From Armatimonadota bacterium (GTDB lineage: Bacteria; Armatimonadota; SYMT01): 64,000 nucleotides of DNA. A program made the position numbers and the translations under genes. A model generated the notes under the pieces. The model saw only the letters and a program-made list of their open reading frames with translations. It was not told where the DNA came from and made no database searches. The stretch is taken from assembly GCA_041690135.1 (NCBI GenBank), contig JAWLHY010000003.1, positions 544,001 to 608,000 on the forward strand. Direction: 5' to 3'. Position 1 is the first letter of the stretch. Each line of letters opens with the position of its first letter. Shown in pieces: positions 43,429 to 59,421 of the stretch.

Positions 43429-45189
43429 ATGCTTTGCTCACGTTTTTCCCGGACCGCTCTTCTCATTTGTGGGTTTTTGCTCCCGCTGGGTTCCCTTTCG
43501 GCCACGCAGGCGCAGCCGGCGGCCGCTGAGACCCGGAAGCCGAACGTCATCCTGATCATGACGGACGACCAGGGCTATGGGGATCTCGGCGCCCACGGCA
43601 ACCGGATGATCCGCACACCGAACCTCGACCGTCTCCATGCGGAGAGCATCCGGCTCACGGACTTCCACGTCGACCCGACCTGTGCCCCGACCCGTGCGGC
43701 ATTGCTCACCGGCCGCTACTCCACCCGTACGGGTGTGTGGCACACGATCGCCGGTCGCTCCTTGATGGCGCACGACGAGGTAACGTTGGCGCAGGCATTC
43801 CGGAAGGGCGGCTACCGCACCGGCATCTTCGGCAAGTGGCACCTGGGGGAGAACTATCCCATGCGCCCGCAGGACCGCGGCTTCGACGAGGTGCTGGTTC
43901 ACGGGGGTGGGGGAGTGGCGCAGACACCCGACACCTGGGGCAACGACTACTTCGACGACACCTACCTGCGGAACGGCAAGCCGGAGAAGGCAAAGGGGTA
44001 TTGCACCGACGTCTGGTTCGATTCCGCGCTCCGGTTCATCGAGAAGTCGGGGAAGCGGCCGTTCCTGGCCTACATCCCCACCAACGCTCCCCACAGTCCC
44101 TATTTCGTGGACCCGAAGTACGCGGAGCCGTATCGCAAACAGGGGGTCCCGGACCCGATGGCCCAGTTCTACGGGATGATCACCCACCTGGACGAGAACG
44201 TGGGCCGGCTGCGGCAGCGGCTGCGGGACCTGGGCCTGGAGCGAGACACCATCATCTTCTTCATGACCGATAACGGCTCGGCGGCGGGCATGGTCCGCGG
44301 CAAGACCACCGGGCCCGGCTGGAAGGGCTACAACGCCGGTCTTCGGGCTCTCAAGGGCAGCGAGTACGATGGGGGCCACCGGGTGCCGTTCTTCGCCTAC
44401 TGGCCGGGGGGCGGTCTCACCGGGGGCCGGGATATCGACACGCTGGCGGCGCACGTGGACGTGGTCCCCACCCTGGCGGAGATCTGCGGGCTGAAGCTGC
44501 CGGACCGCTCCCTCGACGGCCGCAGCCTGCTACCTCTGCTGAGGGGGGAGAAGCGCGCCTGGCCGGAGCGGACCCTGTTCGTCCACTCGCAGCGCGTGCA
44601 GGACCCGGTGAAGTGGAAGCAGTCCGCCGTAATGACCCGCCGCTGGCGGCTGGTCAACGGGAAGGAGCTGTACGACATCCAGGCGGACCGGGGCCAGACG
44701 CGGGACCTGGCCGCGGAGCACCCGGAGGTCGTGACGCAACTGCGCGGCGAGTACGAGAAGTGGTGGACCGATCTCTCCCCCGCCTTCACCCGCGACGTGT
44801 CGATTGTCCTCGGCGGCAAGGAGAACCCGGTCGCGATCACCGCCCACGACTGGCGCGCCGCGGACGCCCAGGTGCCGTGGAACCACGGGATGATCGCGCG
44901 GCAGCCCCTTTCCAACGGCTGGTGGGCGGTCGACGTGCGGCGCCCCGGCACCTACACGGTCACCCTCCGCAGTTGGCCGCGGGAAGCGCCGGATGCCCCA
45001 GCCCTGGATGCCGGTACCGCGAAGCTGTCCGTCGGTGGCGTGGAGCAGAGCCGGCCGGTCCCGGATGGCGCCCGGTCCGTCACGTTCCAGGTGAAACTGC
45101 CGGCCGGCCCAACAAAGCTCCAGACCTGGCTTACCCGCCCCAACGGCGAAGCACGCGGTGCCTTCTATGTCGAGGTGAACCGGAAATAG
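43429..45189 (+). CDS. Secreted arylsulfatase with a C-terminal beta-sandwich extension
   Basis: TDDQGYGD, CAPTRAALLTGR, GKWHLG, TDNG. Confidence 0.93.
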   Translation: MLCSRFSRTALLICGFLLPLGSLSATQAQPAAAETRKPNVILIMTDDQGYGDLGAHGNRMIRTPNLDRLHAESIRLTDFHVDPTCAPTRAALLTGRYSTRTGVWHTIAGRSLMAHDEVTLAQAFRKGGYRTGIFGKWHLGENYPMRPQDRGFDEVLVHGGGGVAQTPDTWGNDYFDDTYLRNGKPEKAKGYCTDVWFDSALRFIEKSGKRPFLAYIPTNAPHSPYFVDPKYAEPYRKQGVPDPMAQFYGMITHLDENVGRLRQRLRDLGLERDTIIFFMTDNGSAAGMVRGKTTGPGWKGYNAGLRALKGSEYDGGHRVPFFAYWPGGGLTGGRDIDTLAAHVDVVPTLAEICGLKLPDRSLDGRSLLPLLRGEKRAWPERTLFVHSQRVQDPVKWKQSAVMTRRWRLVNGKELYDIQADRGQTRDLAAEHPEVVTQLRGEYEKWWTDLSPAFTRDVSIVLGGKENPVAITAHDWRAADAQVPWNHGMIARQPLSNGWWAVDVRRPGTYTVTLRSWPREAPDAPALDAGTAKLSVGGVEQSRPVPDGARSVTFQVKLPAGPTKLQTWLTRPNGEARGAFYVEVNRK

Positions 45190-45205
45190 TGCGCGCGCGT
45201 GCCTC

Positions 45206-45253
45206 GGGACGGACAGCCGTTCCCCTCGGCCGAGGGGACCGGCTGTCCGTCCC
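45206..45253. terminator. 48-bp near-perfect palindrome between convergent genes (putative bidirectional terminator)
   Basis: GGGACGGACAGCCGTTCCCCTCGG|CCGAGGGGACCGGCTGTCCGTCCC, one mismatched pair; no U-tract. Confidence 0.55.
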
Positions 45254-45258
45254 CGGGA

Positions 45259-46827
45259 TCAGTGGCTCGATGCGTGACGCATCCGGCTCGGGCGGAAACG
45301 AAGGAAGACGTGAACGCCCACCGGGAAATCGCCGTAGACCCTCCGCAATTCCGACGGCACCGCCTGCAGCGTGACGGACCCACCCAGCAGGGCATCGAAT
45401 CCGGAGAAGTGCCCCACCTCCCTCGAGTAACCCAGGGTGAAGGCGTTGACCGTGAAAAGCCGCTCGGCGTTCGGGCCGGCGCGGAAGAGGCCGTCCCGGT
45501 CGAGGCGCTCCACGCGGCCGAACAAGTAATTGCGCTGAGCCCAGTTATAGACCCCTTCCAGCCCAAAGGAGTCCTCGGTCCGGCCTCCATGCCCGTGTCC
45601 TTCCTCGTCGTTGCGGCCCCAAAGGAAGGAGGCGGCCCAGTAGCCTCGCTCCTGGTCCCGCACATAGGTGGCGGAGGCGCTGGTGCGGCGGACATCTCCC
45701 GGCTCATCCAGTTCCGGGGACTTCAACCAGCCACGCGAGACCTGCATGCTCCAGTTGGGTGAGGGGTTGTACCAGAGCCGGACCGAGGGGGAGTTGAGCC
45801 CCACCGAATCGAATGCCCAGCGGTTGGCGTCCGGCTCCCGGGCATTGAACCAGGACCCTTCCAGCTTCCACTTGCGGCCCTGGATGCCCCCGGTCACCAC
45901 CCCGTACGCGATATGGGTCGAGTCCTGCAGGTGGTGGGCCAGCGGGGTCTGCGGGTTATCCCAGGCACTGATCCGGTGGGGATAGGCGACCGGTCCCAGC
46001 GCGGGCTCGCCGACCGGAGCGAGGTAGAGCGACCAGGCCAGGTCGCGATTGATGGCGCGGGAGTACTGGGCGGCGATTTCCATGAAAAGGTCGTGAGGGT
46101 GCTGGCGGTCGATCAGGCCCTCTCCGGTCTGGAGAAGCTGTGGGACGCCGTTGTCCCCCACCGTCGCCGGTTCCAGGCTCATCATCAGCCGGAGCATCAG
46201 ATCGCCTTTCCCCAGTGACCGGTGCGCCATCCCCATGGCCCAGTTCTGGCTGACGAACCGGTCGAAGCCGCGGGGACCACCCTGGGCGACGTAGTCCAGG
46301 AAAGCGTTGCCCATCAACATCAGGTTCCAGTCGCCCCGGTTCCAATGCCGCATGAACATGGGGGTCGCGTCCGGCTGCCAGGAAGTCCCCGATCCCATCC
46401 GCCGATTCATGGTCAGGCCGGGGATGTCCGTGTCGAAGAAGCCGTGCATTGCCTCCCGCATGGCCGGGTGCCCCGCATGGCCGGGCATCCCTTCCCGGTG
46501 CTCCGGGCCGAGCGGCGAGGCCGGAGCCCCGCGGTGTGGGTCCGGGTGCTCCCCGGGTGGGGTCGCGGGTAACGTAGGCTCCTTCGGGTGCTCACCATGA
46601 GGCGCGGGCTTGGTCGCCGGTGCAGCCTGCGCCACCGCGAGGAGAAGGGAGGATCCTTCACTGGTGACGGGGGGTGAAACTGCAGGCAGGCCCAACTCAG
46701 CGGCAGGCTTCACGGCTTCCCCGGAAGGGCCCGGCGACGCATTCTCGGAGCAGGCGGGCGCACCCCCCAGGATCGCCGACAGCAGGCAGGACAGGACAAG
46801 CAGCGCGTGGGCGGAACGGCTCTTCAT
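45259..46827 (-). CDS. Putative outer-membrane beta-barrel protein with a His/Met-rich N-terminal metal-binding region
   Basis: ATG 46827; signal peptide; HGEH..GEHPDPH..GMPGHAGH..MREAMH; GSGTSWQP, DRQHPHDLFME, HHLQDSTHI; amphipathic strands. Confidence 0.7.
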   Translation of the reverse strand: MKSRSAHALLVLSCLLSAILGGAPACSENASPGPSGEAVKPAAELGLPAVSPPVTSEGSSLLLAVAQAAPATKPAPHGEHPKEPTLPATPPGEHPDPHRGAPASPLGPEHREGMPGHAGHPAMREAMHGFFDTDIPGLTMNRRMGSGTSWQPDATPMFMRHWNRGDWNLMLMGNAFLDYVAQGGPRGFDRFVSQNWAMGMAHRSLGKGDLMLRLMMSLEPATVGDNGVPQLLQTGEGLIDRQHPHDLFMEIAAQYSRAINRDLAWSLYLAPVGEPALGPVAYPHRISAWDNPQTPLAHHLQDSTHIAYGVVTGGIQGRKWKLEGSWFNAREPDANRWAFDSVGLNSPSVRLWYNPSPNWSMQVSRGWLKSPELDEPGDVRRTSASATYVRDQERGYWAASFLWGRNDEEGHGHGGRTEDSFGLEGVYNWAQRNYLFGRVERLDRDGLFRAGPNAERLFTVNAFTLGYSREVGHFSGFDALLGGSVTLQAVPSELRRVYGDFPVGVHVFLRFRPSRMRHASSH

Positions 46828-46910
46828 TTCGGAGTTCTCCGGCTGCGCTCCGCAGCCGGACCACTCTACCCTCGCCTGCTCCGCCGAAAAACACCGGCGG
46901 CCCTGGGCGA

Positions 46911-47786
46911 TTATGCGGCCCGCACCTCGATCTGGCCCTCTCGCACTCGGGTCTCCAATGTCGGTTGCTTGAAGGCGGAAGGCCCTTCTTCCACGTGACC
47001 ATCCGCCAGGCAGAAGCGCGAGCCGTGCCACGGGCAGACGACGCTGCCGTCCGGTTTCAACTCCCCCTCGGAAAGCGGACCGCCGAGGTGGGCGCACTTC
47101 TCCACGAGCGCGTGGATCCGGCCCTCCTGTCGCACGAGCAGCACGGGGGTTCCGTTGGCTTCCACCTTCCGCAGCTCGCCCTCCGGCAGCTCGGCTTCGG
47201 CCAGCACGGGGGTGAAGTCGTCCGGTCCGGAATACTCCGCCGCATGGTTCGTGCCGATATTATGCTCGTACACCAGGTGCCCGCCCAGGTAGGCCCCGGC
47301 CATCAGGGCAGTAAAGCCGAGGAGGCCCGTGCCGCGGCCCGCGTTCCGGTGCCCCCGCTTTCGAAGCGCCAGCGAAGCGGCAAACAGGAGCGTCGCGCCC
47401 CCGTTGAACGCCGCGTGGAGAATGCCCACCTTCCGGGCCTCCCCACTGGTGTGATGCCAGTCCGCCAGGCCGGTAATCGCCGTACCCACCGCCGCCACCA
47501 GGCCCAGGGTCACGGCCGCGTCGGCCCCCGCGGACAACTCCTCTTTACCCCGCGCCGCATCGACCATGTCCAGGGTGACCGCCGTGGTCCAGGCCCCCAC
47601 GGGTACGTCCGTCAACACCGGATGCAGTGGATGTCCGAGCCAGGTACCGTGCAGAAAGTTGCGCGTCTTCACGGCCGCGGGCTCGGACCGATCCAGCACG
47701 GCCGCAACCGGCTTATCCAGTACCTCGCCGACCTGTTCGGTCCACTCCTGGTCTTCCAGCGTCTGCAGCGGTGTGGGCAGCGGCAT
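46911..47786 (-). CDS. DUF2231 membrane domain + Rieske [2Fe-2S] protein
   Basis: GHPLHPVLTDVPVG, GLADW, GGHLVY; CAHLGG and CPWHGSRF. Confidence 0.9.
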   Translation of the reverse strand: MPLPTPLQTLEDQEWTEQVGEVLDKPVAAVLDRSEPAAVKTRNFLHGTWLGHPLHPVLTDVPVGAWTTAVTLDMVDAARGKEELSAGADAAVTLGLVAAVGTAITGLADWHHTSGEARKVGILHAAFNGGATLLFAASLALRKRGHRNAGRGTGLLGFTALMAGAYLGGHLVYEHNIGTNHAAEYSGPDDFTPVLAEAELPEGELRKVEANGTPVLLVRQEGRIHALVEKCAHLGGPLSEGELKPDGSVVCPWHGSRFCLADGHVEEGPSAFKQPTLETRVREGQIEVRAA

Positions 47787-47937
47787 CTTCCATTCCTCCG
47801 GTATTTGCGGTCGGGAGCGGGTCATTCCCAGGCGCGATTGGGGGTCCGGCAAACGCCGGCAGGGGTGCCCGTCTCCCGGTCTCTTACCTCGATGCTCGTC
47901 TGAGCAAACCCTCTCCGGACGGGTGTTCCTCAGAAGA

Positions 47938-48531
47938 CTAATTCGGAGGGGAAGTTTGGCGCTCCGGCTTTGCTCTCTCGCAGGCGGATAGGATGCGGTT
48001 CCCGGCTGCATCGTACTTCGGGTTGAAGGGCGGCAACTTCGGAGAGCTCAGCACCGAGAAGACTACCAGCACGCCCGCCAGAGCGGCGAGGCTGACCAGC
48101 CGTGGGAAGGGGTTCAGAGCGGTAAGCCCCTGCCGTGCGGCGCCCGGTAGGAGCAGCGTTGTAACCACCCCATACGCCACCAGGCTTTGCTCCGGCGCGG
48201 CTCCCAGTCCAAATACTCCCTTTGGGCAGGCGAGCACCCCCGACCAGACAAGAGAGCTGTGGACGGCGGCCACCCCCAATCCGGAGAATGCCAGGGGTAG
48301 CGCCAACAGACTCAGCGTTCCAGGAGCAACAGGCAGTGCGGTGGCCAGACCCACGCCAAGCAGGGCGACAATCGCCATGATGAAGGTACGCTGGTAAAAG
48401 CAGAGCGGGCAGGCGTTCAGGCCCAGCCCCATGCTGAGGTAGAGGCTGCCCAGAAGGGTGCCCGCGGCGGCGAGGAGGGCCAGGCGCTCCCAGGGTACCA
48501 GTCTGACGGGCGTATCTTTGGCTTCTTTCAT
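47938..48531 (-). CDS. DsbB-family disulfide bond formation protein
   Basis: GSLYLS..GLNACPLCFYQR, additional periplasmic Cys; ATGA overlap with the desaturase gene. Confidence 0.8.
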   Translation of the reverse strand: MKEAKDTPVRLVPWERLALLAAAGTLLGSLYLSMGLGLNACPLCFYQRTFIMAIVALLGVGLATALPVAPGTLSLLALPLAFSGLGVAAVHSSLVWSGVLACPKGVFGLGAAPEQSLVAYGVVTTLLLPGAARQGLTALNPFPRLVSLAALAGVLVVFSVLSSPKLPPFNPKYDAAGNRILSACERAKPERQTSPPN

Positions 48532-49406
48532 GACGGCACGGCCTTTCCTGCCGGGTAGGGTTCGAGCTCTTCCGCGGGACGCCCGGTAGAGGCCTCGCGA
48601 GCGGGGATATCCATCTTTTCCAAGTTCGCAACGGGTGTCTTCACGAGACCCCAGAGGCCCTGCCACTCCTCGCCGTCAAACTCCCGCAGGCCGTAGCGGA
48701 GGGTGCGCGCGTCGTCGCGGCGCCGGAAGGTGCGGCCGAGGCGATCCCACCAGGAGAAGATGCTGGAATAGTTGGAGTCGGTTTCCGGCTGCCAGTCCGA
48801 GTGATGGACGCGGTGCATGTTGGGCGAGACGATCACCGTGCGCAAGAAGCGGTCGTACCGCTCCGGCAGGGCGACGTTACTGTGATGGAATGCGATCACC
48901 GGCAGGAGAAATGTCTCGTAGAGCACCACCTGCCAGAGCGTTAGCCCCAGGAGCGGTACGATGGCGAGCCGCAGTGTCGAGGAGATGATGATCTCGCCGA
49001 AGTGGAAACGCAGGGCGGTCGTCACGTCCATCTCGGGATCGCTGTGATGCATCCGGTGGAAGCGCCAGAGGAACGGCACGCGGTGGTTGGCCCGGTGCCA
49101 CACGTACATCCAGGCATCGAACAGCAGCAGCGCCAGCGGCAGCTCCACCCAGGCGGGTGCGGTGAGTTGGTGCAGCAGGCCGAAGCGAGTCTCCTCCGAC
49201 CATGCGGCCGCGCCCGCGATCGCGGCAGCGAAGAGGAGACCGAGGACCGCCATGTTGAGACCGGCCATCACGAGGTTCCGGAAGGCGTGGCGGTACCGGT
49301 GGGGACGATCGACAAACACGGGAACCCAGGTCTCCAGGCACCAGAGGAGCACCAGTACTCCCACCGCGATGCCCGTCTGGACCTGCAACAAACTCGGTGT
49401 ATCCAC
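48528..49406 (-). CDS. Sterol desaturase / fatty acid hydroxylase family protein
   Basis: His boxes HRANH, HRMHH, FHH, HRVHH. Confidence 0.9.
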   Translation of the reverse strand: MDTPSLLQVQTGIAVGVLVLLWCLETWVPVFVDRPHRYRHAFRNLVMAGLNMAVLGLLFAAAIAGAAAWSEETRFGLLHQLTAPAWVELPLALLLFDAWMYVWHRANHRVPFLWRFHRMHHSDPEMDVTTALRFHFGEIIISSTLRLAIVPLLGLTLWQVVLYETFLLPVIAFHHSNVALPERYDRFLRTVIVSPNMHRVHHSDWQPETDSNYSSIFSWWDRLGRTFRRRDDARTLRYGLREFDGEEWQGLWGLVKTPVANLEKMDIPAREASTGRPAEELEPYPAGKAVPS

Positions 49407-49408
49407 GG

Positions 49409-49759
49409 CTATTCATCCTCTCCCCGCACGAGCGGTCCGCGCCAGGCCCGGATCCCTCCGGCCAGGTTGCGAACGTTCCTGAATCCTCGCTGGGCCAGCA
49501 CCCGGCTGGCCTGGGCACTTTTCAGCCCCACATTTCAATAGACCACGACCGGCTCGTCAGGATTCAGGTCCGCGGACACCGCTTCGAGGGTGCCGGACGG
49601 CACGTGTCGCGCGCCCGGCAGATGCCCGGAGGTGAACTGCTCCGTGGCGCGAATGTCCAGCAGAAGCAGCGGCCGAACGGACGCCATTTCCGCCTCCAGC
49701 GCGGCGGCCGAAACTTCCGGAACCGATGGAGAAACGAGAGCGAGTAGACGAGACAGCAT
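49409..49759 (-). CDS. Rhodanese-domain protein with predicted selenocysteine at the active site (116 aa, U75)
   Basis: AAGGAGG SD; LDIR..QFTSGHLPGA; in-frame TGA 49535-49537 at the catalytic Cys position; readthrough gives UNVGLKSAQASRVLAQRGFRNVRNLAGGIRAW...EDE, ending at TAG 49409, 2 nt before the next start. Confidence 0.88.
49493..49530 (-). promoter_or_regulatory. Candidate SECIS hairpin(s) for the rhodanese UGA
   Basis: UGGG-GCU-GAAA-AGU-G-CCCA (loop at +12) and GGCCAGC-CGGGU-GCUGGCC (loop at +31). Confidence 0.55.
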
Positions 49760-49803
49760 GGGACCTCCTTTGCCCTCAGCTTCTCACCCGGGGATATAAA
49801 CAA

Positions 49804-49842
49804 CTAGACAGGTTTCATGGGCCAGCCATAGAGAAAGGCTAT
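49804..49842. promoter_or_regulatory. LysR-type binding sites in the divergent promoter
   Basis: ATAG-N7-CTAT (T-N11-A) at 49828-49842 and a degenerate CTAG-N7-TCAT at 49804-49818. Confidence 0.6.
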
Positions 49843-49846
49843 AGCG

Positions 49847-50776
49847 GTGGAGATCACCTTCCGGCAGCTCCGCTATTTCCGCGCCGTGGCGGAACACGGG
49901 AACTTCACACGGGCGGCCGAGGCGCTGCTGGTGGCGCAGCCCACCGTCAGCCTTGCTATCAAGGACCTGGAGCGGGAGACGAAGGCGGTCCTGTTCGAGC
50001 CCGCGGGCCGCCAGGTGCGGTTGACGGCCGCGGGGCGCCTCCTGCTGCGCCACTGCGAGCGCATCCTGGGGGAAATGGACGCCATCGAGATCTCCCTGAG
50101 TGAGTTGTGGGGTGGGCAGGCAGGGAAGCTGGTCGTGGGGGCGAGCAGCACGCCCGGCACCTATCTGCTGCCCGAAATCCTCGGCAAGTTCCGAGCCGGG
50201 TCCCCACGGGTGGAAGTGGCGCTGGAGGTGACGGATACCGGCGAAGTGCTCCGCCGCGTGCAGGACGGCCGTCTCGACCTCGGGGTTGTCGGGGAAGCCC
50301 CCTTCGATCCGGCGCTCCACATCATGACCTTCCGCCGGGAAAGGCTGGTGCTGATCCTCTCCCCCGAACACCGTCTGGCCCGCCAGCGCTGGGTGACACT
50401 GCCGGACCTCTCCGGAGAGGCTTTTATCTGCCGGGAGGCGGGCTCCAGCACGCGAGAGATCGTCCGGCGCGCCCTGGAAGCACGAGGCATGGAGCTCCCG
50501 GTCACGATGGAGCTGGGAAATACCGAGGCGGTGAAGCGAGCGGTCTCCGCCGGCTTAGGTATCGCCTTCGTTTCGGAGCACGCGGTCGGGCTGGAAGTCC
50601 GGGCCGGCGTGCTCGTCACGCGAGAGATGCCGGACCTGGAGCTGACCCGCGGCCTTTACGTCGTCCGGAGAAGCAGCCTTCCCCTCACCCGGCTGCACGA
50701 GCGCTTCCTGGAGGTGCTCCTCGGCCATGGCGGGGTCTCGCCGCCGGTGCCGCCGGATGGCGCCGCCCCCTTCTGA
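49847..50776 (+). CDS. LysR-family regulator, CysL-like
   Basis: GNFTRAAEAL..AQPTVS HTH; GASSTPGTYLLP, REAGSSTR, ELGNTEAVKRAV.AGLG. Confidence 0.93.
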   Translation: MEITFRQLRYFRAVAEHGNFTRAAEALLVAQPTVSLAIKDLERETKAVLFEPAGRQVRLTAAGRLLLRHCERILGEMDAIEISLSELWGGQAGKLVVGASSTPGTYLLPEILGKFRAGSPRVEVALEVTDTGEVLRRVQDGRLDLGVVGEAPFDPALHIMTFRRERLVLILSPEHRLARQRWVTLPDLSGEAFICREAGSSTREIVRRALEARGMELPVTMELGNTEAVKRAVSAGLGIAFVSEHAVGLEVRAGVLVTREMPDLELTRGLYVVRRSSLPLTRLHERFLEVLLGHGGVSPPVPPDGAAPF

Positions 50777-50832
50777 AGACGATTCCTTGGGCGAATGGGC
50801 GCCGCCCCGGCACTGACGGTATCATGGGTGCA

Positions 50833-51258
50833 ATGCGTCCGTTCCTAAGCCACGCGGTGCGACTGGTCTTCTTACCGGTCGTGGTCCTTCTCCTGGGTTT
50901 CGCGCCCGGACCGTGGTATTGCGCCGATGGTTCTCCGTGCGCGGCGACCGCCGCCGCCTGCTGCTGCGGCTGTGCGGAAGCCGGGGGGACGGAGATCCAC
51001 GTCTGCGAGGACGCCGCCCCCGGCGAGGCGCTTTCCCCGGAAACCTGCGGCTGCTACCGGCTGGCGGTGGCGCCCGAATGCGTACCCGCGGGGGATCGCG
51101 AGCGACCCGACGTGGAGCCGGGCTTGCCGGCCCCGGTTGCGGTGATCGTCCCGCCGTTGCTGGTCGCCTCCCCGCGCGCTACTCCCGCCTCGGCGCACAG
51201 TCCACCTACCCATCTCATCTCCTCCGGGGACCCTCGCGGTCCGCCGCCCATCGGATAG
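50833..51258 (+). CDS. Cys-rich exported leader protein ending in RGPP (DUF2946/CutF/CruR-like arrest-peptide candidate)
   Basis: ATG 50824 or 50833; hydrophobic N-terminus, WYCADGSPC, CCCGC, CGC, Pro-rich tail ...DPRGPPPIG*. Confidence 0.72.
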   Translation: MRPFLSHAVRLVFLPVVVLLLGFAPGPWYCADGSPCAATAAACCCGCAEAGGTEIHVCEDAAPGEALSPETCGCYRLAVAPECVPAGDRERPDVEPGLPAPVAVIVPPLLVASPRATPASAHSPPTHLISSGDPRGPPPIG

Positions 51259-51333
51259 AGACCTGCAGTCCGTACCCACGCGACCCGGGTGGTACCGCGT
51301 GAGCAGTGATTCCTATCCATTGGAGATGATCTT

Positions 51334-52254
51334 TTGAGAGCCTATGCAGTTCTGCCGGCCTTGTGGCTGGTTGTAGTATCTGTCGCGGCGCCGGGGCCCG
51401 TGCGCGCCGCAACCCTACTAACCGCACCCCGGATGGCCGTTTGCGCCGTCTGTCGTGAGGGCGAGGAGCCGGTGCTGGCAACGGCGGTCCACCAGGGCCG
51501 CGAGTTCACCTTCTGCAGCGAGGAGTGCAAGAAGACCTTCCTCGCCAACCCGGCCGAGTTCTTGACCCATTCCCCAGCCGAACCGAAGCCTGCAGCCCCT
51601 AACCTTCAACCTTCAACTTCCAACCTTCAACCTGCCAACCCTGATCCCGTTATGCCAAACCGCAGAAGTCCTGGAGGCTCTGCGGCTCCCAGCTGACCGA
51701 GTTGACCCGGTGAGGGAACCTCCGTGCGAGGTTCAGGAGATCTACTGGCAACGCGTTTCAACCTGGGTATCCGGTACATTCCGGACGGAGTGATCGATCG
51801 GGCCAAATGGCGGAACACCCTGATGTACCGCCTGAGCCAGGACCTGCAAGCGGGTGTCGAATACAACCCGCTGGCGGATGATGTCGGGCTACTGGTCAAC
51901 TGGCGCGCCCTCCGCGAGACGGAGAATCGTCCGGCGCTTTCATTCGGCACTTCGTCGGACCGGATCGGCACCCCCTACGGGCGGGCTTACTTCGCCACGC
52001 TTTCGAAGGACCTGGAGCCGCGCATCGGGCTGCCCGTCAGCGTGTACGGGGGCGTGCTCTGGGGCTCGTTCGAGGATGAGTTCGTCTTCCCGTTCGGGGC
52101 GAACTTCCGGCTGGGCAACCAGTGGACGTTCACCCCACAGTACGACGGACACGCCTCCCACGGGCTGCTCACCTATTCGTGGGATCGTTACAGCGTCAGC
52201 GGCCTGCTGATCCGCTGGCGCTACCCGGGCGTGGCGTTTAATATCGGCTTCTGA
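51334..52254 (+). CDS. Exported YHS-domain + beta-barrel protein with a predicted UxxU (U121, U124; 306 aa)
   Basis: GGAGA SD + TTG; signal peptide; YHS motif CAVC...FTFCSEECKKTFLANP; in-frame AGC-TGA-CCG-AGT-TGA-CCC joins ORF 51334..51696 to ORF 51724..52254; C-terminal AFNIGF. Confidence 0.78.
51716..51734 (+). promoter_or_regulatory. Candidate SECIS hairpin
   Basis: GAACCTC-CGTGC-GAGGTTC, a perfect 7-bp stem; loop 17 nt after the second UGA and 26 nt after the first. Confidence 0.6.
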
Positions 52255-52432
52255 ACCCGATCGGTGCTCTCTCTGACACGGAGGGACACAGATTGGACGG
52301 GACGGAACGCAGAAGAACACGGCGGGACCGAGCCGTTCGCGGGCGATGGGGTCACCACGGAGCGCATAGAGACCACGGAGTGGAACCCCTTCCTTCTCCG
52401 AGGTCTCCGTGCGCTCCGTGGTGATTTCGTTC

Positions 52433-53320
52433 TTAAAAGAACGTCTCGAACGCAAACCGCAGCTCGTAGGGGTAGTCGCTGTGGTCCTGGGCGCCGCTGC
52501 GGGCGACCGGGACGAACACCCCGAACCGGAGCTGGTGATTGCCCTGGATGAACATCTGCGTGACGTGGAACCCGAACAGCCGGTGCCCGTTGTTCGCGTC
52601 GCGCCCGCTGCCCAGCGGGTCGTCCGCGTGGAACTCCCCGTGGATGCCGAAGGCGGTGTTCAGTCCCAGATCGGATGCCTCCACCTGCGGCTTGAACCAC
52701 CGCCCGTAAGCCGCGTCGAACATCAACATATCGCCCATGCGGAAGCCGCCCCCCACGTCGCGGTTCCAGACCACGCTGGCCCAGGTGGTGTCGTCCAGCC
52801 GCTCCAGGTCCCAGGCATACCCCAGCATGATCCCGGGATTGCCCGTCCCGGTCTGCGAGTGCGGGTCGAGGCGCTCCCCGGCGAGGCGGTGGCCGTCGTC
52901 GCCGGTGGGAAGCTTGATCCCATAGAAGATCGACTGCTGCTGATTGACGCCGATCTCCTGCCGCGCGGCGATCCGAGTCTTGGCGCGCAGGCTGAGGTCA
53001 CCCACCCCGGAAACCGTGGTGGAGCGCACCCCGCCTCCCGCCCGCCGCTCGTGGAGCGCGTTGTAGTAGGGGATCATCAGGCGGACGTTCAGCTTCGGAC
53101 TGAAGCCGTAGTCCACCATATACTCCTGCTCGAACATCCGCATCCGCTCGCCGCCCCGGCGGACAGTACCCGCGTCGAAGTATTTGAACTTCACTTCCGG
53201 GTGAATGACGCCAAACCCGAAGGTGATCGGCGTCTCCCCCCAGAGCGGCTCATGCGCCCGGGCCGGGGTAGCCCCAAGCAGCAGCGCCGCCAGGAGGCCG
53301 ATGCGTAGCATGCAATTCAT
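52433..53320 (-). CDS. Putative outer-membrane beta-barrel transporter
   Basis: Signal peptide (ARA/HEP), SGVGDLSL, GIKLPTG, QTGTG, C-terminal RFAFETFF; GGAGG SD just after the HMA gene. Confidence 0.75.
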   Translation of the reverse strand: MNCMLRIGLLAALLLGATPARAHEPLWGETPITFGFGVIHPEVKFKYFDAGTVRRGGERMRMFEQEYMVDYGFSPKLNVRLMIPYYNALHERRAGGGVRSTTVSGVGDLSLRAKTRIAARQEIGVNQQQSIFYGIKLPTGDDGHRLAGERLDPHSQTGTGNPGIMLGYAWDLERLDDTTWASVVWNRDVGGGFRMGDMLMFDAAYGRWFKPQVEASDLGLNTAFGIHGEFHADDPLGSGRDANNGHRLFGFHVTQMFIQGNHQLRFGVFVPVARSGAQDHSDYPYELRFAFETFF

Positions 53321-53332
53321 CGGATCGCCTCC

Positions 53333-53884
53333 TTATCGCTTCGGCCTCTTGTCTTCGGCGCCGTAGATCGCGGTGACCGCCAGGGAGCCCTTGCTGTCCG
53401 GACCCTGCGGATCGGGTTTCCAGAGCCCTTCCACCTCGACCTGGTCACCTACATGCCGGTTCAGCTGCACAGCAGTGTCCGGGTCCTCTTTCGCAGCCAC
53501 CACAGAGAGCGAGGTGGGGGATTTCATGCCGTCCAATTCGAGGAGCAATGTGTCTCCCCGTTTTACGACGGTGCCGGAGACGACCAACTCCACCTGGTCC
53601 TCGATCGGCTTGTAGCCGGCCTCCCGGATCTTCTCGAGCATCTTCGGGATCTCGGGCCAGGCACCGGGCTTCACCTTTACCTCCATGTGCGGAGGTCGAA
53701 GAATCAACTTGGATTGAGCAACGCCATCCAGGCGCTGCAGCCCCTTACGGAGCGTAATGCCTCAGGTCGCTCACGTGGCCCCTTTGATACCCAGCTTGAC
53801 GAGCTTGACATCGGCCAGGCCCGGAGAGGCGAGCAAGGAAGTAAGGGCGACGGAAGCCCCGAAGAAGAGAACCTTTCTAAACAT
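53333..53884 (-). CDS. Exported heavy-metal-associated (HMA, MerP/CopZ-like) protein with a predicted UxxU metal site (U38, U41; 183 aa)
   Basis: ATG 53884; signal peptide; LGIKGAT-U-AT-U-GITLRKGLQRLDGV...KIREAGY follows the HMA pattern GMxCxxC..I...L..L.GV...I..AGY; TGA at 53771-53773 and 53762-53764; joins ORFs 53771..54118 and 53333..53707. Confidence 0.88.
53737..53760 (-). promoter_or_regulatory. Candidate SECIS hairpin
   Basis: GCA-(UUAC)-GCUCC-GUAA-GGGGC-UGC; loop starts at +14 and +23 from the two UGAs. Confidence 0.5.
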
Positions 53885-53968
53885 GCGCAGTCGATCCAAT
53901 CCAGTTCCCGCGCCGGGAACAGTCACGCCGATCCATGCGGATGGCATAGGGAGTGGGGATGAAATGGA

Positions 53969-54095
53969 TGTTGTTGGAAAACCCACGGATGTCATGGGCC
54001 ACAGGACCGTAGGGAATGTGACGCCGTTCCATTCCGCTGGTCCGGCACTTGATCCCGTGGCGCCAAGAGTGCGCAGTCCGGGTTTCCCAACAGCA
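53969..54095. mobile_element. MITE-like element containing a GTAG REP
   Basis: Terminal IR TGTTGTTGGAAAACCC / GGGTTTCCCAACAGCA (14/16); internal REP at 54009-54039. Confidence 0.55.
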
Positions 54096-54189
54096 ACCGT
54101 AAAGATCCCCTCCGGCAATCCTGACCCGCATCCCGGTGAGATTCCGGGGCGAAGGGCGGAGCACGCCGGAGTTTGGAGCAGTGGAGGGA

Positions 54190-54678
54190 CTACGCAGTGG
54201 GCGGGGCTCGTGATGGCCCCAAAGAGAGGAGCGGAGGCGGGCTATGCCCCAGCGGATCAGCGGGGCGGGTACCGAACGTCGCCGTCAGCAGAGGGGGCGA
54301 CAGGTGAGCCGGCGGCAACAAACCGTCGGGAGCCGACTCGGGGTGTGAGGTCGTGGAGGTTCGCAGCGAGGGCGCGGCCGGCCGGGAAGAGACGATGAAC
54401 CGGCAGTGATCGCCGGTAGAAATCTGGGCTCCCGGACCCGGAGGCGCAGCCGCCAGCCCGGGATACCGGCCATGTCCGCAGCGAAGTTGCACCGGTGAGA
54501 CGCAGCAGGAAGCAGCTTCTACCCCGGCGGTACGGTCGTCCTTCGCGCAGTGGTACCCCCGGCTGTCGGCCACGCAGGGAGTGCCGTCCGGGCAGGACCA
54601 GTACGCGGCAAAGGGTGCGACCGGTCCCAGGACCAGCGTCAGGATCAGCAGTATCGCCAGGAGCAGCCGTCTCATCAT
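54190..54678 (-). CDS. Cys-rich exported leader protein ending in RAPP (DUF2946/CutF/CruR-like arrest-peptide candidate)
   Basis: Signal/TM segment; YWSCPDGTPC, SCC, CGH, DHC; Pro-rich tail ...GPSRAPPTA*. Confidence 0.75.
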   Translation of the reverse strand: MMRRLLLAILLILTLVLGPVAPFAAYWSCPDGTPCVADSRGYHCAKDDRTAGVEAASCCVSPVQLRCGHGRYPGLAAAPPGPGAQISTGDHCRFIVSSRPAAPSLRTSTTSHPESAPDGLLPPAHLSPPLLTATFGTRPADPLGHSPPPLLSLGPSRAPPTA

Positions 54679-54883
54679 GGGTAAGCGAGACCGGAAAGGA
54701 TCCGTCTCTGCTTAACCATACGGCACCCTCGGTCCCGGCGTCATCGCGAACGTGACAGTCGCGGGCACCTCTTTCCGTCCTAACTCCGCTGAAGGCCTCG
54801 AGCGAGTTCGGACGATCCGCATCCTGGGAAATACGACTTTGAAGCGACTCGAACTGAGCTGCGGGAGTGGACTGGAGGTAGGG

Positions 54884-55585
54884 ATGGAACGGGCGCAATT
54901 CTGGAAGGGGCTCGCGATCGGGATCGCGGCCACCCTGCTGGCGGCCGTTCTGATCATGCTAGTTTCGCTAACGGTGATGAGCGCGAACCAGGATGCAGGT
55001 GGTATCCCTCCGATGAACGGCGCCCGGCATGAGGATCCTCCCACGCGCCGCGAGACGAATGGCGGGATGATGGACCCGGACGGCATGATGGGCGGCGGCA
55101 GGATGATGGACGGCATGCCGCCCTGGATGATGAGCCGGCCGGATACCGGCGCGGCGGGTGGCGGCCCGGAGATGATGCGGGACATGCGGACCATCCGCCA
55201 ACTTCTGACCCAGCATGAGAAGATCGAGCGTTACCTGTGGGAGATCCCCGGCGGGGTCCGCGCCGTGACGACCAGCGAAGATCCGCAGGTGGCCCAGGCG
55301 ATCCGCACGCATGTCCGCCAGATGAAGGAGCGGCTCGAGCAGGGGCAGCCGATCCGGATGATGGACCCCCTCTTCCGCGAGCTCTTCCGGCATCACGAGA
55401 AGATCAACATACAGGTCGAAGAGGTGCCGGGCGGCGTACGCGTGACGGAAACCTCGCAGGACCCACAGGTGACGGCGCTTATCCGCCAGCATGCAAACCG
55501 GGCCGTCTCCGAGTTCGTGGAGCGGGGCATGCCGCGGGCCATGGAGCCGACGCCGCTGCCGCCTGGCTATGAGACCGGCCGGTGA
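54884..55585 (+). CDS. Membrane-anchored Met-rich periplasmic protein
   Basis: GGAGG SD + ATG 54884; TM; GGMMDPDGMMGGGRMMDGM; internal duplication HEKI......PGGVR...TS.DPQV...IR.H. Confidence 0.75.
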   Translation: MERAQFWKGLAIGIAATLLAAVLIMLVSLTVMSANQDAGGIPPMNGARHEDPPTRRETNGGMMDPDGMMGGGRMMDGMPPWMMSRPDTGAAGGGPEMMRDMRTIRQLLTQHEKIERYLWEIPGGVRAVTTSEDPQVAQAIRTHVRQMKERLEQGQPIRMMDPLFRELFRHHEKINIQVEEVPGGVRVTETSQDPQVTALIRQHANRAVSEFVERGMPRAMEPTPLPPGYETGR

Positions 55586-55617
55586 GCGGCCGGTGTGCAC
55601 CCCCACTCCAGTCAGGC

Positions 55618-56700
55618 TCAGAACTGCGAGAAGAGCAGTCCGCCCGCCAGCCCCAACACCAGGACGAACAGGCCCAGGCAGGCCGCCGCGCGATAGGAGC
55701 CCAGCACCTTCCCCAGCATCCAGAGGGAGGGGAAGCTGACCGAGGGCAGCACCACCAGCAGCGCCACGGCCGGGCCTTCGCCCATTCCGGCCCGGGTAAA
55801 CTCCGAGACCCAGAGGACTTCCGTGAAGGTCGGGACCATCAGCAGGGTCCCGAGCAGGGAGGCCGCCGCGGTGGGCAGCAGCCCGTTGCCGAAGCTCCGC
55901 GCCACCGCTTCCACCGGCAGCGCGGTCTTGAGCAGCCCGATCAGGAGAAAGCCGAGCAGCAGCATCGGCAGGACCATCCGGGCGATGGCGGCGGTCTGGG
56001 CCAGCCAGCGAGCGAGCATCTCGCCGACGGAGGTATCCGGCGGCGGACCTACCGGACAGACTTCCTCTTCCTGCTTGCCCGGTATCAACCGGCTCGCCAG
56101 GTACGTGGCGCCCAGGGCAGCGGCCACTCCCAGAACCAGCCGGGCCACGGCCAGCTTTACCGGCAGCAACTCGAAGGCGAGGATGAGGGTGACGGTGTTC
56201 AGCGCCGGCGCGGTGACGAAGTAAGCCATGGCCGCACCCCGTCCGGCGCCGGAGGCCCGCAGCCCCGCGGTAGCTCCCACCGCGCAGCAGGAGCAGAACA
56301 TACTCGGGAGCCCCATGATTAGGCCCGCAAACTGCTGCCGGAACCCGTTTCCGCCCAGATGTCGCCGGATCAACTCCGGCAGAAAGGCCTGGACCGCGCC
56401 GCCGATGAAGAGGCCGAGCAGGGTCGCCGACCAGACCGCATTCACATAATCGACGGTGTAGAGGAACGGCAAGGCCCACTGCGGTGCGTGCTGAAGATCC
56501 AGCGAGAGCGGAAACTTCGTGCCCAGGGGAGTGACGTTGACGATCCCCAGCTTGTTCAGCAGTGAGAGGATGCGGTACTGGAACACCAGCCCGAACAACA
56601 CCGCGAAGACGCCGAACACGACCCCATTGCGCTGGCGACGACTGAGAGGGGTGGGCCGGACGCTCTCCGGCTCTGGCATGGGGGCTGCAAGCGTGGACAT
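55618..56700 (-). CDS. DUF318/ArsP-like permease
   Basis: PSMFCSCC, AMAYFVTAPALN, GMGEGPAVALL..LPSVS. Confidence 0.85.
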   Translation of the reverse strand: MSTLAAPMPEPESVRPTPLSRRQRNGVVFGVFAVLFGLVFQYRILSLLNKLGIVNVTPLGTKFPLSLDLQHAPQWALPFLYTVDYVNAVWSATLLGLFIGGAVQAFLPELIRRHLGGNGFRQQFAGLIMGLPSMFCSCCAVGATAGLRASGAGRGAAMAYFVTAPALNTVTLILAFELLPVKLAVARLVLGVAAALGATYLASRLIPGKQEEEVCPVGPPPDTSVGEMLARWLAQTAAIARMVLPMLLLGFLLIGLLKTALPVEAVARSFGNGLLPTAAASLLGTLLMVPTFTEVLWVSEFTRAGMGEGPAVALLVVLPSVSFPSLWMLGKVLGSYRAAACLGLFVLVLGLAGGLLFSQF

Positions 56701-57123
56701 CCCGGAGTGGACCCTCTGGAACCTCCCGGCTATTTCAGTAAACCGCGCGGGAGGTGGTGAGTGAAGCGACGGCCTGGGCCACTCGGCACCCGGCCGGACT
56801 GTCGCGACGACTATTCACTTCACCATACCGGCCCGACCCCAATCCTTCCAATCAAAATCCTCGATGGGGAGGGAGATGAGCTATCGAGGGTCGCTATTCA
56901 GGTGCTCTTCGATAAGGATTAACTGTGCTTGGCACGCAGATCTCGGATCCCCCAAGCGGCCCGGTCTGGGCGCGGCTAGGTGGAGCGAACACCGTCCTGC
57001 CCTTGAGCGTGGAATCGCCGCATGCCGCGGCGTTTTGCGATCCTGGACCCGGTGCCTGATGTGGCTATCGGAGGTCGTCCCAGGATGCGGAAGCCGGGTC
57101 TGATGTCACCCAACTTGCACGAC

Positions 57124-57840
57124 CTAACCGGCCTGGGCCCGCCGGTTCACCTCGTTCCAGTCGATATGGTCGAGGAACTTGCCGACGTAATCGCCCTTGC
57201 GGTTCTGGTAGTCCACGTAGAACGCGTGCTCGTACACGTCGCACACCAGCAAAGGCTGCCCGAACCAGAGCACACCGACCTCGTGGAGATCGCTGGCCAC
57301 GTTATAGAGCTGACCGTTTACGGCGTCGCGCGCCAGGATGCCCCAGCCGTTCGCCGCTATGCAGGTGGCCCGGAAATCATCCATCCATCGCTCCACTGAG
57401 CCGAACCGCTTCGTCAGGGCCATGCGAATATCTTCCTGAGGTCCTGCCTTTTGCGCCGTCATGTTCTCGAAGTAAAGCTCGTGGAGCACGACGCTGTTCG
57501 CCCGATTCACGCGGTCCTTCACCAGCAGGCTGTGGGCCGGCGACGAAAGCGGCTGATTTCCCTCCAGCATCTGGCCGAGCTGCTGCTCGTCACTCAGGAA
57601 TGCCTTGAGTGCGCCCCCGTAGTGGGCCGTGTGGTGCGGCGCGAGCTGAGCGCGCGAGAGGAACCCCGGCAGCTCGGCATAGGGCAGGGGCTTCGGCTTC
57701 GCGGTCACCAACCCCGAATTGGCGGGAAACGCTTTTCCCTCCGCCGCCTCCGCGGGCGCTACCTCGGCGACCATGATGCCGGCGGCGCAGCCGGCAAATC
57801 CACGCAGCACCTCACGGCGAACGATCCTGGGAGTATTCAT
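57124..57840 (-). CDS. Tat-exported Fe/Mn superoxide dismutase-like protein (ChrC-like)
   Basis: RREVL twin-Arg; HHTAHY, NSVVLHELYFENM, FGSVERW, DVYEHAFYVDY. Confidence 0.85.
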   Translation of the reverse strand: MNTPRIVRREVLRGFAGCAAGIMVAEVAPAEAAEGKAFPANSGLVTAKPKPLPYAELPGFLSRAQLAPHHTAHYGGALKAFLSDEQQLGQMLEGNQPLSSPAHSLLVKDRVNRANSVVLHELYFENMTAQKAGPQEDIRMALTKRFGSVERWMDDFRATCIAANGWGILARDAVNGQLYNVASDLHEVGVLWFGQPLLVCDVYEHAFYVDYQNRKGDYVGKFLDHIDWNEVNRRAQAG

Positions 57841-58031
57841 TGCAGCTTCCTTACAGGGCAGAGCATTGACCTACGGCGATTATATACCTCAACAGGCTGT
57901 ACGATCTGCAGCGCTGGCCGGGATCCGGCATACCTAAGCGGAGGAACCTTCCGTAGAAGGGACCAAGATCGAACCGGCCGGGGCTCACGTCGTGCAAGCA
58001 TCTGGAATCCCTGATTCCGTCGCGATTCGAA

Positions 58032-58754
58032 GTGATGGTTGAGATGAATAACAGTGAACCGTTGCACCCTTCAGCGGCTCAGGTGGCTCGCAGGGCCCTG
58101 GTGCTCGCAGCAGTCACCTGCCGTGGTTCGATCGACCGTGCCTCCGGCGTGCCGGAAGCCGAGGCCCTTTACGTCAGTATACTGGAATGGCTTACGAGCA
58201 CCCGATTGTGGGCTGACGTGCAGCCTGATGAGAAAAGCCTCCTGGAAACACCCTTGGGGAGCTTGCCCGAGCGGGACGTGATCCGAGCCACCTGGCGGGT
58301 CGAAGGCATGGCGGTTCTGGCGTGGGCATTGAAGCTGCTGGATCCCCCGAGGCATGACGCGAAGGTCGATCCTTATGCCGTTGCGGAGGCCGTTGGCTTC
58401 TTGAGCGATGAAGTCCCAAATCTGATTAGCGCGGCAGAGCTCCAGCCATACGAGCATCTTGTGAGTTATCGGGAACTTCTGTACGCGGTCCACTCCCGGC
58501 TGCGGGCGTATCTCCGCCACCCCGCTTCCAAGGATTTCCGCGGTTGGATCGAAGAGGATTGGCTGGATTTGCTCCGGGTGAACACTTGCGAGCTTCTGGC
58601 GGGAGATGATCTCGGCATCGACGGGGTTCCCGTGGCGGAGGCTGACCTGGAGCGCATTCGCGAAGTGGAGTGGGTGACGACGGAACGGCATCGCGCCGTC
58701 CTCTGGCTCCTAGGGGATGCGGCTTCTTACTCCGAGGTGCACGTCGACACGTGA
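58032..58754 (+). CDS. DUF4272-like protein
   Basis: VARRALVL, WRVEGMAVLAWAL, ERHRAVLWL, YSEVHVDT. Confidence 0.75.
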   Translation: MMVEMNNSEPLHPSAAQVARRALVLAAVTCRGSIDRASGVPEAEALYVSILEWLTSTRLWADVQPDEKSLLETPLGSLPERDVIRATWRVEGMAVLAWALKLLDPPRHDAKVDPYAVAEAVGFLSDEVPNLISAAELQPYEHLVSYRELLYAVHSRLRAYLRHPASKDFRGWIEEDWLDLLRVNTCELLAGDDLGIDGVPVAEADLERIREVEWVTTERHRAVLWLLGDAASYSEVHVDT

Positions 58755-58809
58755 GAAGCCGGCGTGCCACCGCGCGGGATGCGCAGAGAATGGGAGTAGG
58801 GTAAGGGGA

Positions 58810-59049
58810 TCAACCCGGCATCCGAAGCCGCGCCTCCTCGCCCATTTCGAAGGCGTGGCACTCGCGCAGCCTGGACAGCGCGCTCTGCAAATCTGTGAAG
58901 TCCACCGCCGCGGAGAACCGCTGGGCCCGGTCGAGCATCCGCAGCAGTGGTTGAGGATTTCGCTCACGCGAAAGCGCCCGGAGAGCGATGAGGTAGTCCT
59001 CACGATACGCAGTGGGGATGAGAACTCGCCGTTCGCCACCGGCAATCAA
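58810..59049 (-). pseudogene. C-terminal remnant of a Fic-family protein
   Basis: RVLIPTAYREDYLIALRALSR...HAFE; no Fic catalytic motif upstream. Confidence 0.55.
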
Positions 59050-59248
59050 CTCTGCCTTCGCCCTGTCTTGCGGCTCGGGAGACGAGCGTCGTGAGCTCGG
59101 ATGAACTCACAAACACTTCCGGGAGATGGCGCAGCCGATTTTGTGCCGTATAAGTGCGCGGAATCGCCTGCGACGCCGGAAACGTGCAACCTAACTCGCT
59201 GGTATGCCAGAATCATACAACGTAAACATGGGTGCTGCGAGAGTGCTC

Positions 59249-59421
59249 TGTCCATCCGCCGCTTCGTTGTCCACGGCTTGGACGAGGGCGCGCATGTCGG
59301 CGATGGAATAAGCCAGGCCGGGGCCGGGACCGCCGACCATCTGCGGGATGTGGTCCCAGATGACGCAGCCGTGGTAGTCCAAGGCTCGCAACGCCTGCAT
59401 CACGCGGTGCATTTCCTGGTA
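59249..59421 (-). pseudogene. Diverged duplicate of the 3' end of the mannonate dehydratase gene
   Basis: Ungapped match to 59852-60024 (offset 603): DHIPQMVGGPGPGLAYSIA.MRALVQAV.NEAADG. Confidence 0.85.

Follow-up and report, generated by a model that had tools for sequence, protein, structure and literature searches.

A split Armatimonadota gene as a probable double-selenocysteine protein with a predicted outer-membrane beta-barrel, and its widespread, mis-annotated family

Two neighboring open reading frames (ORFs) share one frame at positions 51334 to 52254 of a 64,000-nucleotide stretch of Armatimonadota bacterium DNA (assembly GCA_041690135.1, contig JAWLHY010000003.1, positions 544,001 to 608,000; hereafter the window), and the question raised by this locus is whether they are two genes or a single gene in which two TGA codons are decoded as selenocysteine (Sec). 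The first ORF starts at TTG 51334 and is terminated after 120 codons by the TGA at 51694-51696; it encodes, in this order, a hydrophobic N terminus, the cysteine pattern CAVC...FCSEEC, and a tail rich in Pro, Asn, and Gln. In the same frame there follow CCG AGT, a second TGA (51703-51705), the six codons CCC GGT GAG GGA ACC TCC, and GTG 51724, from which the frame is open for 175 more codons up to the TGA at 52252-52254. The second ORF, which is predicted to form a beta-barrel, has Phe as its last residue and no signal peptide of its own. With both internal TGAs read through, the junction of the two ORFs becomes S-A-A-P-S-Sec-P-S-Sec-P-G-E-G. This layout had been described in an earlier note on the same DNA, and every statement it made about the sequence was found to hold. 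Our comparative analysis of sequences indicates that both TGAs are very probably read as Sec in one exported protein; the fuller explanation, which we regard as likely, is a single 306-residue double-Sec exported barrel protein with a putative soft-metal or redox site.

Relatives of the barrel were gathered by (i) a word-index search with the barrel, in which 1071 of 1125 candidate proteins reached E ≤ 0.001, with 120 of the relatives listed; and (ii) a scan in which every species was represented by a single genome and which returned 472 encoding stretches. The best 80 of these 472 loci were analyzed, and their upstream DNA was read in frame from the invariant GTSSDRIGT motif of the barrel. 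Two fetched loci (L003 and L076) end at a contig edge before the motif, leaving 79 sequences, namely the window and 78 of the 80 loci; the loci come from metagenome-assembled genomes labeled as Armatimonadota, Vulcanimicrobiota/Xenobia, Planctomycetota, Acidobacteriota, Verrucomicrobiota, and Abditibacteriota. An in-frame (S)VP[SA]-TGA/Cys-P-x-TGA-P[GA]E[GS] was found to precede the barrel in all 79, with a P[SAT] pattern for the residue before the first codon. At the first position the codon was TGA in 73 sequences, TGC in 3, and TGT in 3, while the second position was TGA without exception (79/79), and neither TAA nor TAG occurred at either one. Since the same in-frame TGA-P-x-TGA recurs in the window and 78 of 80 related loci, the arrangement is far beyond chance. 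When the 77 distinct sequences were compared, the Ser before the first TGA was encoded by AGY in 41 and by TCN in 30, and variation in the Pro, Gly, and Glu codons around the TGAs was confined to the third base; judging from these codons, the residues flanking the TGAs are under protein-level selection. The earlier note had staked its proposal on barrel homologs carrying CxxC or UxxU at the N terminus, and TGA or Cys was detected at both positions in all 79 sequences as well as in distant Cys forms. Of 41 related genomes, that of the window counted among them, 11 gave a match; in the 16 matches listed, two TGAs were recorded for 10 and one TGA for 1.

These alignments bear directly on the alternative that there are two genes, with a periplasmic YHS protein ending at TGA 51694 and a barrel translated from GTG 51724 by use of GAGGGA as its ribosome-binding site. 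Gene callers split the locus in this manner throughout, the 120 relatives listed being annotated as proteins of 104-187 aa that are devoid of a Pfam domain or signal peptide and mostly begin at or near the same xRGxG; furthermore, the window does offer a GTG and a purine-rich stretch. We conclude that the shared xRGxG start is a gene-calling artefact. The GTG was found to be the conserved Val of the peptide PGEGxxV[RS]G, for which the codon is GTG in 51 sequences, GTC in 22, GTT in 4, and ATC in 2 (n = 79), and in 22 of the 79 the 12 codons past the second TGA include none of ATG, GTG, and TTG, which makes independent initiation of the barrel impossible in many relatives. The two caveats raised by the earlier note thus receive another explanation: the presumed start codon supplies the G-U of a hairpin loop (alignment columns 34-35) and is replaced by GTC, GTT, or ATC in 28 of the 79 sequences, and the presumed Shine-Dalgarno sequence GAGGGA corresponds to two invariant codons, those for the Glu and the final Gly of PGEG. 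Two separate genes would, in addition, leave a predicted outer-membrane barrel without a signal peptide and would reduce those upstream "genes" that have 36-64 codons to the coding of a signal peptide only, and this reading is also at odds with the conservation as protein of the residues between and ahead of the TGAs and with the Cys forms, which are continuous ORFs. We therefore consider two genes to be highly improbable.

A hairpin of 7 bp had been noted after the TGAs, and its pairing proved to be perfect: the segment 51716-51722 (G51716 to C51722) pairs over all seven positions with 51728-51734 (G51728 to C51734), at -10.1 kcal/mol when folded alone (z -2.41). The loop starts 17 nt past the second UGA and 26 nt past the first, with G at loop position 2 followed by U. 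The 2026 review PMC13188914 gives limits for the bacterial selenocysteine insertion sequence (bSECIS) of a 3-9 nt loop, a 4-16 bp stem, a G within the first two loop positions, a distance of 16-37 nt from the UGA, and an energy of -7.5 kcal/mol or lower, and the hairpin of the window falls within all of these limits for loop size, stem length, loop G, spacing, and energy as stated there. An ungapped alignment of the 77 distinct sequences was examined for covariation. A single register for all lineages was rejected, as two registers were required; one tie (L012) was assigned to group A. In group A (56 sequences, including the window, Pyrinomonadaceae, and Verrucomicrobiota) stem columns 26-32 pair with 38-44 around a loop of NGUNN, while in group B (21 sequences, including Xenobia/Vulcanimicrobiota, Abditibacteriota, and some Planctomycetota) the stem lies 4 nt further on. 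The proportion of paired cells was 88% in group A and 93.5% in group B, percentages that are inflated because each sequence was placed in its better-pairing register, such that the double changes are the informative part. Both sides were found to be changed in 3 of 7 pairs of group A (one pair occurring as U-A in 27, C-G in 22, and A-U in 6) and in 6 of 8 pairs of group B. The covariation score of group A was 0.360 compared with 0.093 after shuffling, and in neither group did any of 500 shuffles score as high (0/500 each), with slid controls at 0.025-0.102 for group A and 0.040-0.125 for group B. The 4-nt shift in register between lineages (columns 26-48, window 51716-51738) leaves the peptide PGEGxxV[RS]G unchanged. 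A search of Rfam with 51300-52300 at E ≤ 1 gave no match.

The genome of the window (9.1 Mb in 25 contigs, 97% complete) was found to encode the machinery for Sec insertion, including (i) selB (383.6 bits, cut-off 242) and selA (566.6 bits, cut-off 268); and (ii) selD (369.6 bits) and a tRNA-Sec (67.2 bits), both over their cut-offs, with the tRNA-Sec adjoining selA and selD. The selD gene (G000:C1:1150877-1151803, locus L091), located between selA and tRNA-Sec, has one in-frame TGA itself. In the other carrier genomes passed to the search (40 of the 80 loci), selA was above its cut-off in 40 of 40. The gene terminates with TGA as well; TGA is thus not reassigned genome-wide and is an ordinary stop in this organism. 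Based on these findings, SelB and tRNA-Sec would decode the UGAs at 51694 and 51703, with the single hairpin at 51716-51734, located within the coding region, directing both events. Read-through that does not involve selenium was also considered, whether by leaky decoding of TGA through a near-cognate tRNA (Trp or Cys), in a decaying pseudogene, or as the product of an assembly error. The Sec identity is deduced here from sequence, and one distant homolog does have Trp at the second Sec position (CVGW). Nonetheless, such read-through would have to be reconciled with a second-position TGA that is kept in 79 of 79 sequences across phyla, a covarying hairpin with loop G-U downstream, selA in every carrier genome tested, Cys rather than Trp as the usual replacement, and the use of TGA to end the same gene, and we regard it as very unlikely.

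The Cys forms also bear on the two codons. An exhaustive search of representative proteins gave 204 matches at E ≤ 0.001, and the distant homologs among them are continuous ORFs with Cys-x-x-Cys at the TGA positions; within the 79 sequences, a further six have a Cys codon at position 1. In a BLASTP alignment (30% identity, E 6e-27), both Cys of P0195 fall opposite U121 and U124 of the window. In P0195, P0224, P0250, and P0265 a signal peptide leads to PTCAGCAGEA and then the barrel; in P0192, P0207, P0213, P0244, and P0236 YHS domains are placed ahead of the Cys motif, with two YHS stretches and one TRASH match identified by Pfam in P0192; and in P0180 the motif VPSCALCP stands behind a thioredoxin-like tail. 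The distant homolog with Trp, P0150, reads P-A-C-V-G-W-P-G-E-G; its TGG differs from TGA by one base and may reflect either an error in sequencing or calling or a genuine Trp form.

The junction is constant, whereas the ORFs upstream of the first TGA were found to be of four types in the Sec forms: (i) a bare signal peptide of 36-64 codons (e.g., L006, L008, L011, L013, and L074); (ii) a signal peptide and a YHS domain (the window, L016, L018, L022, and others); (iii) a signal peptide and a Redoxin/TlpA/ResA-like domain with W-x-x-C-x-x-C (most Pyrinomonadaceae); and (iv) a YHS and a TlpA-like domain (L004, L005, L007, L010, and L014). Overall, 62 of 79 sequences have a YHS or thioredoxin module, either fused or just upstream, and a crude hydropathy test detected a signal-like hydrophobic stretch after the start codon in 72 of the 75 relatives with a complete upstream ORF. 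In the first ORF of the window, PF04945 (YHS) was matched at residues 54-79 with 33.4 bits (gathering cut-off 30.3, E 4.6e-8); the metal-binding Cys pattern is of the TRASH type. An ORF that consists only of a signal peptide makes no sense alone, which argues that translation must continue past the TGA. The earlier note had suggested that selenium supply could switch the product between a short YHS protein and the full-length form, and such a switch is not general to the family, as at least 14 relatives have only a signal peptide upstream. The period-7 microsatellite that was noted at 51601-51640 is real; since 7 nt is not a multiple of three, the gain or loss of repeat units would break the link of the barrel to the signal peptide and YHS domain, and the repeat could serve to switch the gene by phase variation. 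The closest relative, L001, has a different upstream part, and the repeat was not seen there.

The fold of the barrel was predicted by AlphaFold2 from residues 113-306, with Cys in place of Sec and an alignment of 37 read-through sequences. The model has about 12 long strands, at a predicted local distance difference test score (pLDDT) of 88.3 and a predicted template-modeling score (pTM) of 0.82. Foldseek matches in the PDB were FapF (E 8e-5), KdgM, NanC, OmpG, OEP21, and designed 12-stranded barrels, all at 10-16% identity, with a probability of 1.00 for FapF, KdgM, and NanC. The motifs EYNP and GTSSDRIGT are invariant in the barrel, and a C-terminal Phe is present in at least 90% of the aligned relatives. 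The predicted barrel and terminal Phe together fit an outer-membrane protein, and the model fits a closed, antiparallel, 12-stranded outer-membrane beta-barrel. As the barrel ORF has no signal peptide, one is available to it only through read-through. Thus, the central proposal of the earlier note, a UxxU selenoprotein with its motif at the barrel N terminus and reliant on the upstream signal peptide, is supported by TGA conservation, Cys replacement, hairpin covariation, the Sec machinery, and the predicted barrel, and the barrel topology on which the note had sought a prediction is that of 12 strands by AlphaFold2 and Foldseek. No family for the barrel was identified in Pfam or NCBIfam (release 20.0), and NCBIfam gave none for the read-through protein at E ≤ 0.1. 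A weak match to YjbH was observed for one relative (E 0.0074), and the protein Atlas gave unnamed clusters only, along with a BcsS/YjbH lead. The genome of the window also encodes a weak paralogue (L096, E 7.5e-12), which is without the head motif.

The order of domains also calls to mind a mini-autotransporter, in which a YHS or thioredoxin passenger would be threaded through the 12-stranded barrel to the surface while the UxxU segment occupies the pore. Type Va autotransporters have a signal peptide, a variable N-terminal domain, a linker, and a C-terminal 12-stranded barrel in the same order, and FapF, which gave the best match in fold, is a plugged barrel. However, Pfam gave no autotransporter match, autotransporter barrels were absent among the Foldseek matches listed, and the barrel is far smaller than those of autotransporters; in addition, a TlpA-like reductase requires periplasmic electron donors. 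We thus give this possibility little credence.

From the N terminus, the 306-residue protein would begin with a signal peptide and a YHS domain of the TRASH type, joined by a linker of low complexity to the double-Sec motif and the 12-stranded barrel; what we infer is that Sec is inserted, that the protein resides in the outer membrane, that it has a metal or redox chemistry, and in which direction it would transport. The placement of U/C-x-x-U/C before the barrel, repeatedly fused to YHS/TRASH and TlpA-like domains, suggests a soft-metal or redox site. In the model that we propose, the two selenols, positioned where the barrel opens to the periplasm, would most likely either bind a soft metal with high affinity (copper being the most probable) or form a diselenide that is redox-active. 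This selenol site would be supplied by the fused YHS domain and, in most relatives, kept reduced in the oxidizing periplasm by a TlpA-like thioredoxin that is fused or adjacent, and the barrel would provide the route for the bound species across the outer membrane. The most likely role is thus that of a channel in the outer membrane to which a soft-metal or redox site is attached, and we put the chances of the proposed function at about even.

Genes around the locus were compared by clustering ORFs of at least 90 codons from the window region and the 80 loci, with cluster representatives scanned against Pfam. Beyond the upstream YHS/Trx ORF (62 loci), the real neighbors are common to at most 12 loci, and the other large clusters consist of shadow ORFs on the strand opposite the barrel gene. 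Metal-related neighbors include genes for CDF cation efflux (9 loci), for an RND pump (4 loci), for a P-type ATPase with YHS and HMBD domains (3 loci), and for a MerR regulator (3 loci). The support from gene neighborhood for a metal or redox role is moderate.

The same molecule could instead serve as a redox relay, with the diselenide as partner or substrate of the TlpA-like thioredoxin and with reducing equivalents passed to the outer membrane or beyond, to acceptors such as peroxides, chalcogen oxyanions, or surface disulfides. According to the 2026 review (PMC13188914), most known selenoproteins are redox proteins. A motif search located a Redoxin/TlpA/ResA-like domain directly ahead of the motif and in the same ORF in 50 of 79 sequences, Pfam and NCBIfam confirmed a thioredoxin-type domain for L005 and L024, and the window holds a Sec-rhodanese and a DsbB-like gene nearby. 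Counter to a relay, the protein of the window has a YHS domain without a thioredoxin, Cys forms are found that have as many as three YHS domains and lack a thioredoxin, and metal-efflux genes are neighbors at some loci. Moreover, the roles are not exclusive, as TlpA-type reductases prepare copper sites. A relay as the principal function is therefore possible but appears unlikely to us. Still less probable is a selenium-dependent gate of the outer membrane, in which the U-x-x-U head in or at the pore would open or close the barrel by diselenide formation or metal binding, and in which the state of the gate would be set by the fused thioredoxin and YHS modules. If the protein were such a gate, (i) passage of a soft metal or of selenium through the outer membrane would be coupled to the periplasmic redox state and selenium supply; (ii) low selenium would yield a free periplasmic YHS protein in members like that of the window; and (iii) recoding of both UGAs, at a distance of 9 nt, would be the work of a single SECIS, the place of which differs by 4 nt among lineages.

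Several observations weigh against the proposed double-Sec barrel with a soft-metal or redox site, in addition to the inflated pairing percentages mentioned above. The loci are mostly from Pyrinomonadaceae and, as the best 80 of 472, are not independent. The 47-nt, G+C-rich context of the hairpin folds no better than its shuffles (z -0.72), for which reason hairpin stability alone was not counted as evidence, and one hairpin has to serve two UGAs 9 nt apart. The first 30 modeled residues, which include UxxU, reached a pLDDT of only 68-74. No YHS or Trx match was found in the fetched DNA of 17 of the 79 sequences, no TlpA-like domain was found for the window within 43,001-60,000, and metal-related neighbors occur in a minority of loci. 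The features of the read-through gene are listed in Table 1.

Table 1. Positions in the window of the read-through gene and its parts
Feature	Position	Strand	Basis or remark
Whole read-through gene	51334..52254	+	306 codons and terminal TGA; U121, U124; translation with TGA = U
Probable signal peptide (Sec-type), MRAYAVLPALWLVVVSVAAPGPVRA, with cleavage site following VRA	51334..51408	+	Limits set by eye
YHS/TRASH-type metal-binding domain, C-x2-C ... C-x3-C (CAVC ... FCSEEC)	51433..51573	+	Pfam PF04945; Cys spacing from sequence
7-nt microsatellite AACCTTC, 5.6 copies, in Pro/Asn/Gln-rich linker	51601..51640	+	Tandem Repeats Finder
Putative first Sec codon UGA, U121	51694..51696	+	TGA 73/79, TGC 3, TGT 3
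Putative second Sec codon UGA, U124	51703..51705	+	TGA 79/79; aligns with Cys of P0195
SECIS-type hairpin, 7-bp stem, 5-nt loop CGUGC (51723-51727)	51716..51734	+	Fold, covariation, bSECIS criteria
PGEG motif, then predicted 12-stranded outer-membrane beta-barrel	51706..52251	+	Alignments, AlphaFold2, Foldseek

Further proteins are encoded around the gene in the window. About 2 kb away, a rhodanese gene at 49409-49759 (-) has an in-frame TGA (49535-49537) at the active-site position, VVVY-U-NVGLKS, and yields when read through a 116-aa protein that matches Pfam Rhodanese at E 1.3e-19; it is a second selenoprotein candidate, of a kind already listed (rhodanese UxxG/UxxS forms). A DsbB-like protein is also encoded nearby. 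On the other side, a protein with the Met-rich stretch MMDPDGMMGGGRMMDGMPPWMM (54752-55585, +) adjoins an ArsP_1-family permease (55618-56700, -; PF03773, E 5e-29), and the two possibly represent a metal-handling neighborhood; the Cu/Zn efflux selenoprotein SO_0444 of the 2026 inventory is one that we take to be of the same Pfam family as this permease. Flanking the gene are two secreted Cys-rich proteins, one at 54190-54678 (-) and the other within 50107-51258 (+), in which the signal peptide is followed by W-x-C-x-D-G-x-P-C; neither matched Pfam or NCBIfam, and relatives of the 54190-54678 protein were found in L002 and L003 only. Converging on the 3' end of the gene is a 295-aa protein (52433-53320, -) with a signal peptide and the ending F-E-T-F-F, which looks like another outer-membrane barrel and has no Pfam or NCBIfam match.

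The read-through protein was compared with known systems. Table 1 of the 2026 review (PMC13188914) comprises 119 selenoprotein families or subfamilies, among which the UxxU entries are a Prx-like oxidoreductase, NF041115, and the FmdB family, and outer-membrane proteins are represented by a TonB-dependent receptor and the GSU2204 barrel. The barrel family is absent from that table, and no description was found in the literature searched, including bioRxiv 10.1101/2022.07.06.499078 and PMC12013277; the supplements of these works could list it as an unnamed candidate. NF041115, the UxxU metal-binding (seleno)protein or "putative mercuric reductase", is alike in having two Sec in U-x-x-U and a presumed soft-metal site but is listed in the review table as a "metal-binding protein" and not as a barrel, and the NCBIfam search reported above did not link the read-through protein to it. 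The YHS (seleno)protein NF041384 shares the YHS domain but, as listed, has one Sec in GxU, whereas the Sec residues of the window family lie outside the YHS domain; its model was not matched by the window protein and gave 19.2 bits for the Cys form P0192 (cut-off 70). A Sec in an outer-membrane barrel is also a feature of the TonB-dependent receptor NF049945 (FCYXU) and of NF041027 (GSU2204, MtrB/PioB family), which differ in having, according to their entries, one Sec each within other motifs, and neither model matches here. KdgM, NanC, and FapF (PDB 4fqe, 2wjr, and 5o68) resemble the window barrel in predicted fold and size (for KdgM, a TM-score normalized to the target of 0.61 and a root-mean-square deviation of 4.4 over 186 columns), and differ in that identity is 10-16% and the window barrel has no Pfam membership. 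The NF049945 and NF041027 proteins are large barrels. TlpA/ResA reductases, which include a UGC-type TlpA selenoprotein, are related to the domain fused in most relatives, which scores 88.6 bits for ResA and 74.5 for TlpA, both below the cut-offs; they differ in that the Sec residues of the barrel family are outside the thioredoxin active site (W-x-x-C-x-x-C, with Cys) and the window member is without this domain. The combination of a U/C-x-x-U/C head with fused periplasmic domains is covered by no Pfam or NCBIfam model.

We conclude that this is very probably a new double-Sec selenoprotein family that uses the ordinary SelB/SECIS mechanism and is widespread and widely mis-annotated. Hundreds of genomes split the gene into a short ORF and a "hypothetical" 176-aa protein without export signal, an error that recognition of the read-through would correct. 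The finding would add a two-Sec family that is missing from Pfam, NCBIfam 20.0, and the 119-family table of the 2026 inventory, and the close pair of UGAs under one hairpin provides a natural test case for the flexibility of SECIS spacing. Furthermore, it would bring the chemistry of selenium to the outer membrane in phyla that have received little study, including Armatimonadota, Acidobacteriota, Planctomycetota, and Verrucomicrobiota, and the YHS and TlpA-like fusions offer a testable connection of the use of selenium with redox control in the periplasm and the handling of metals.

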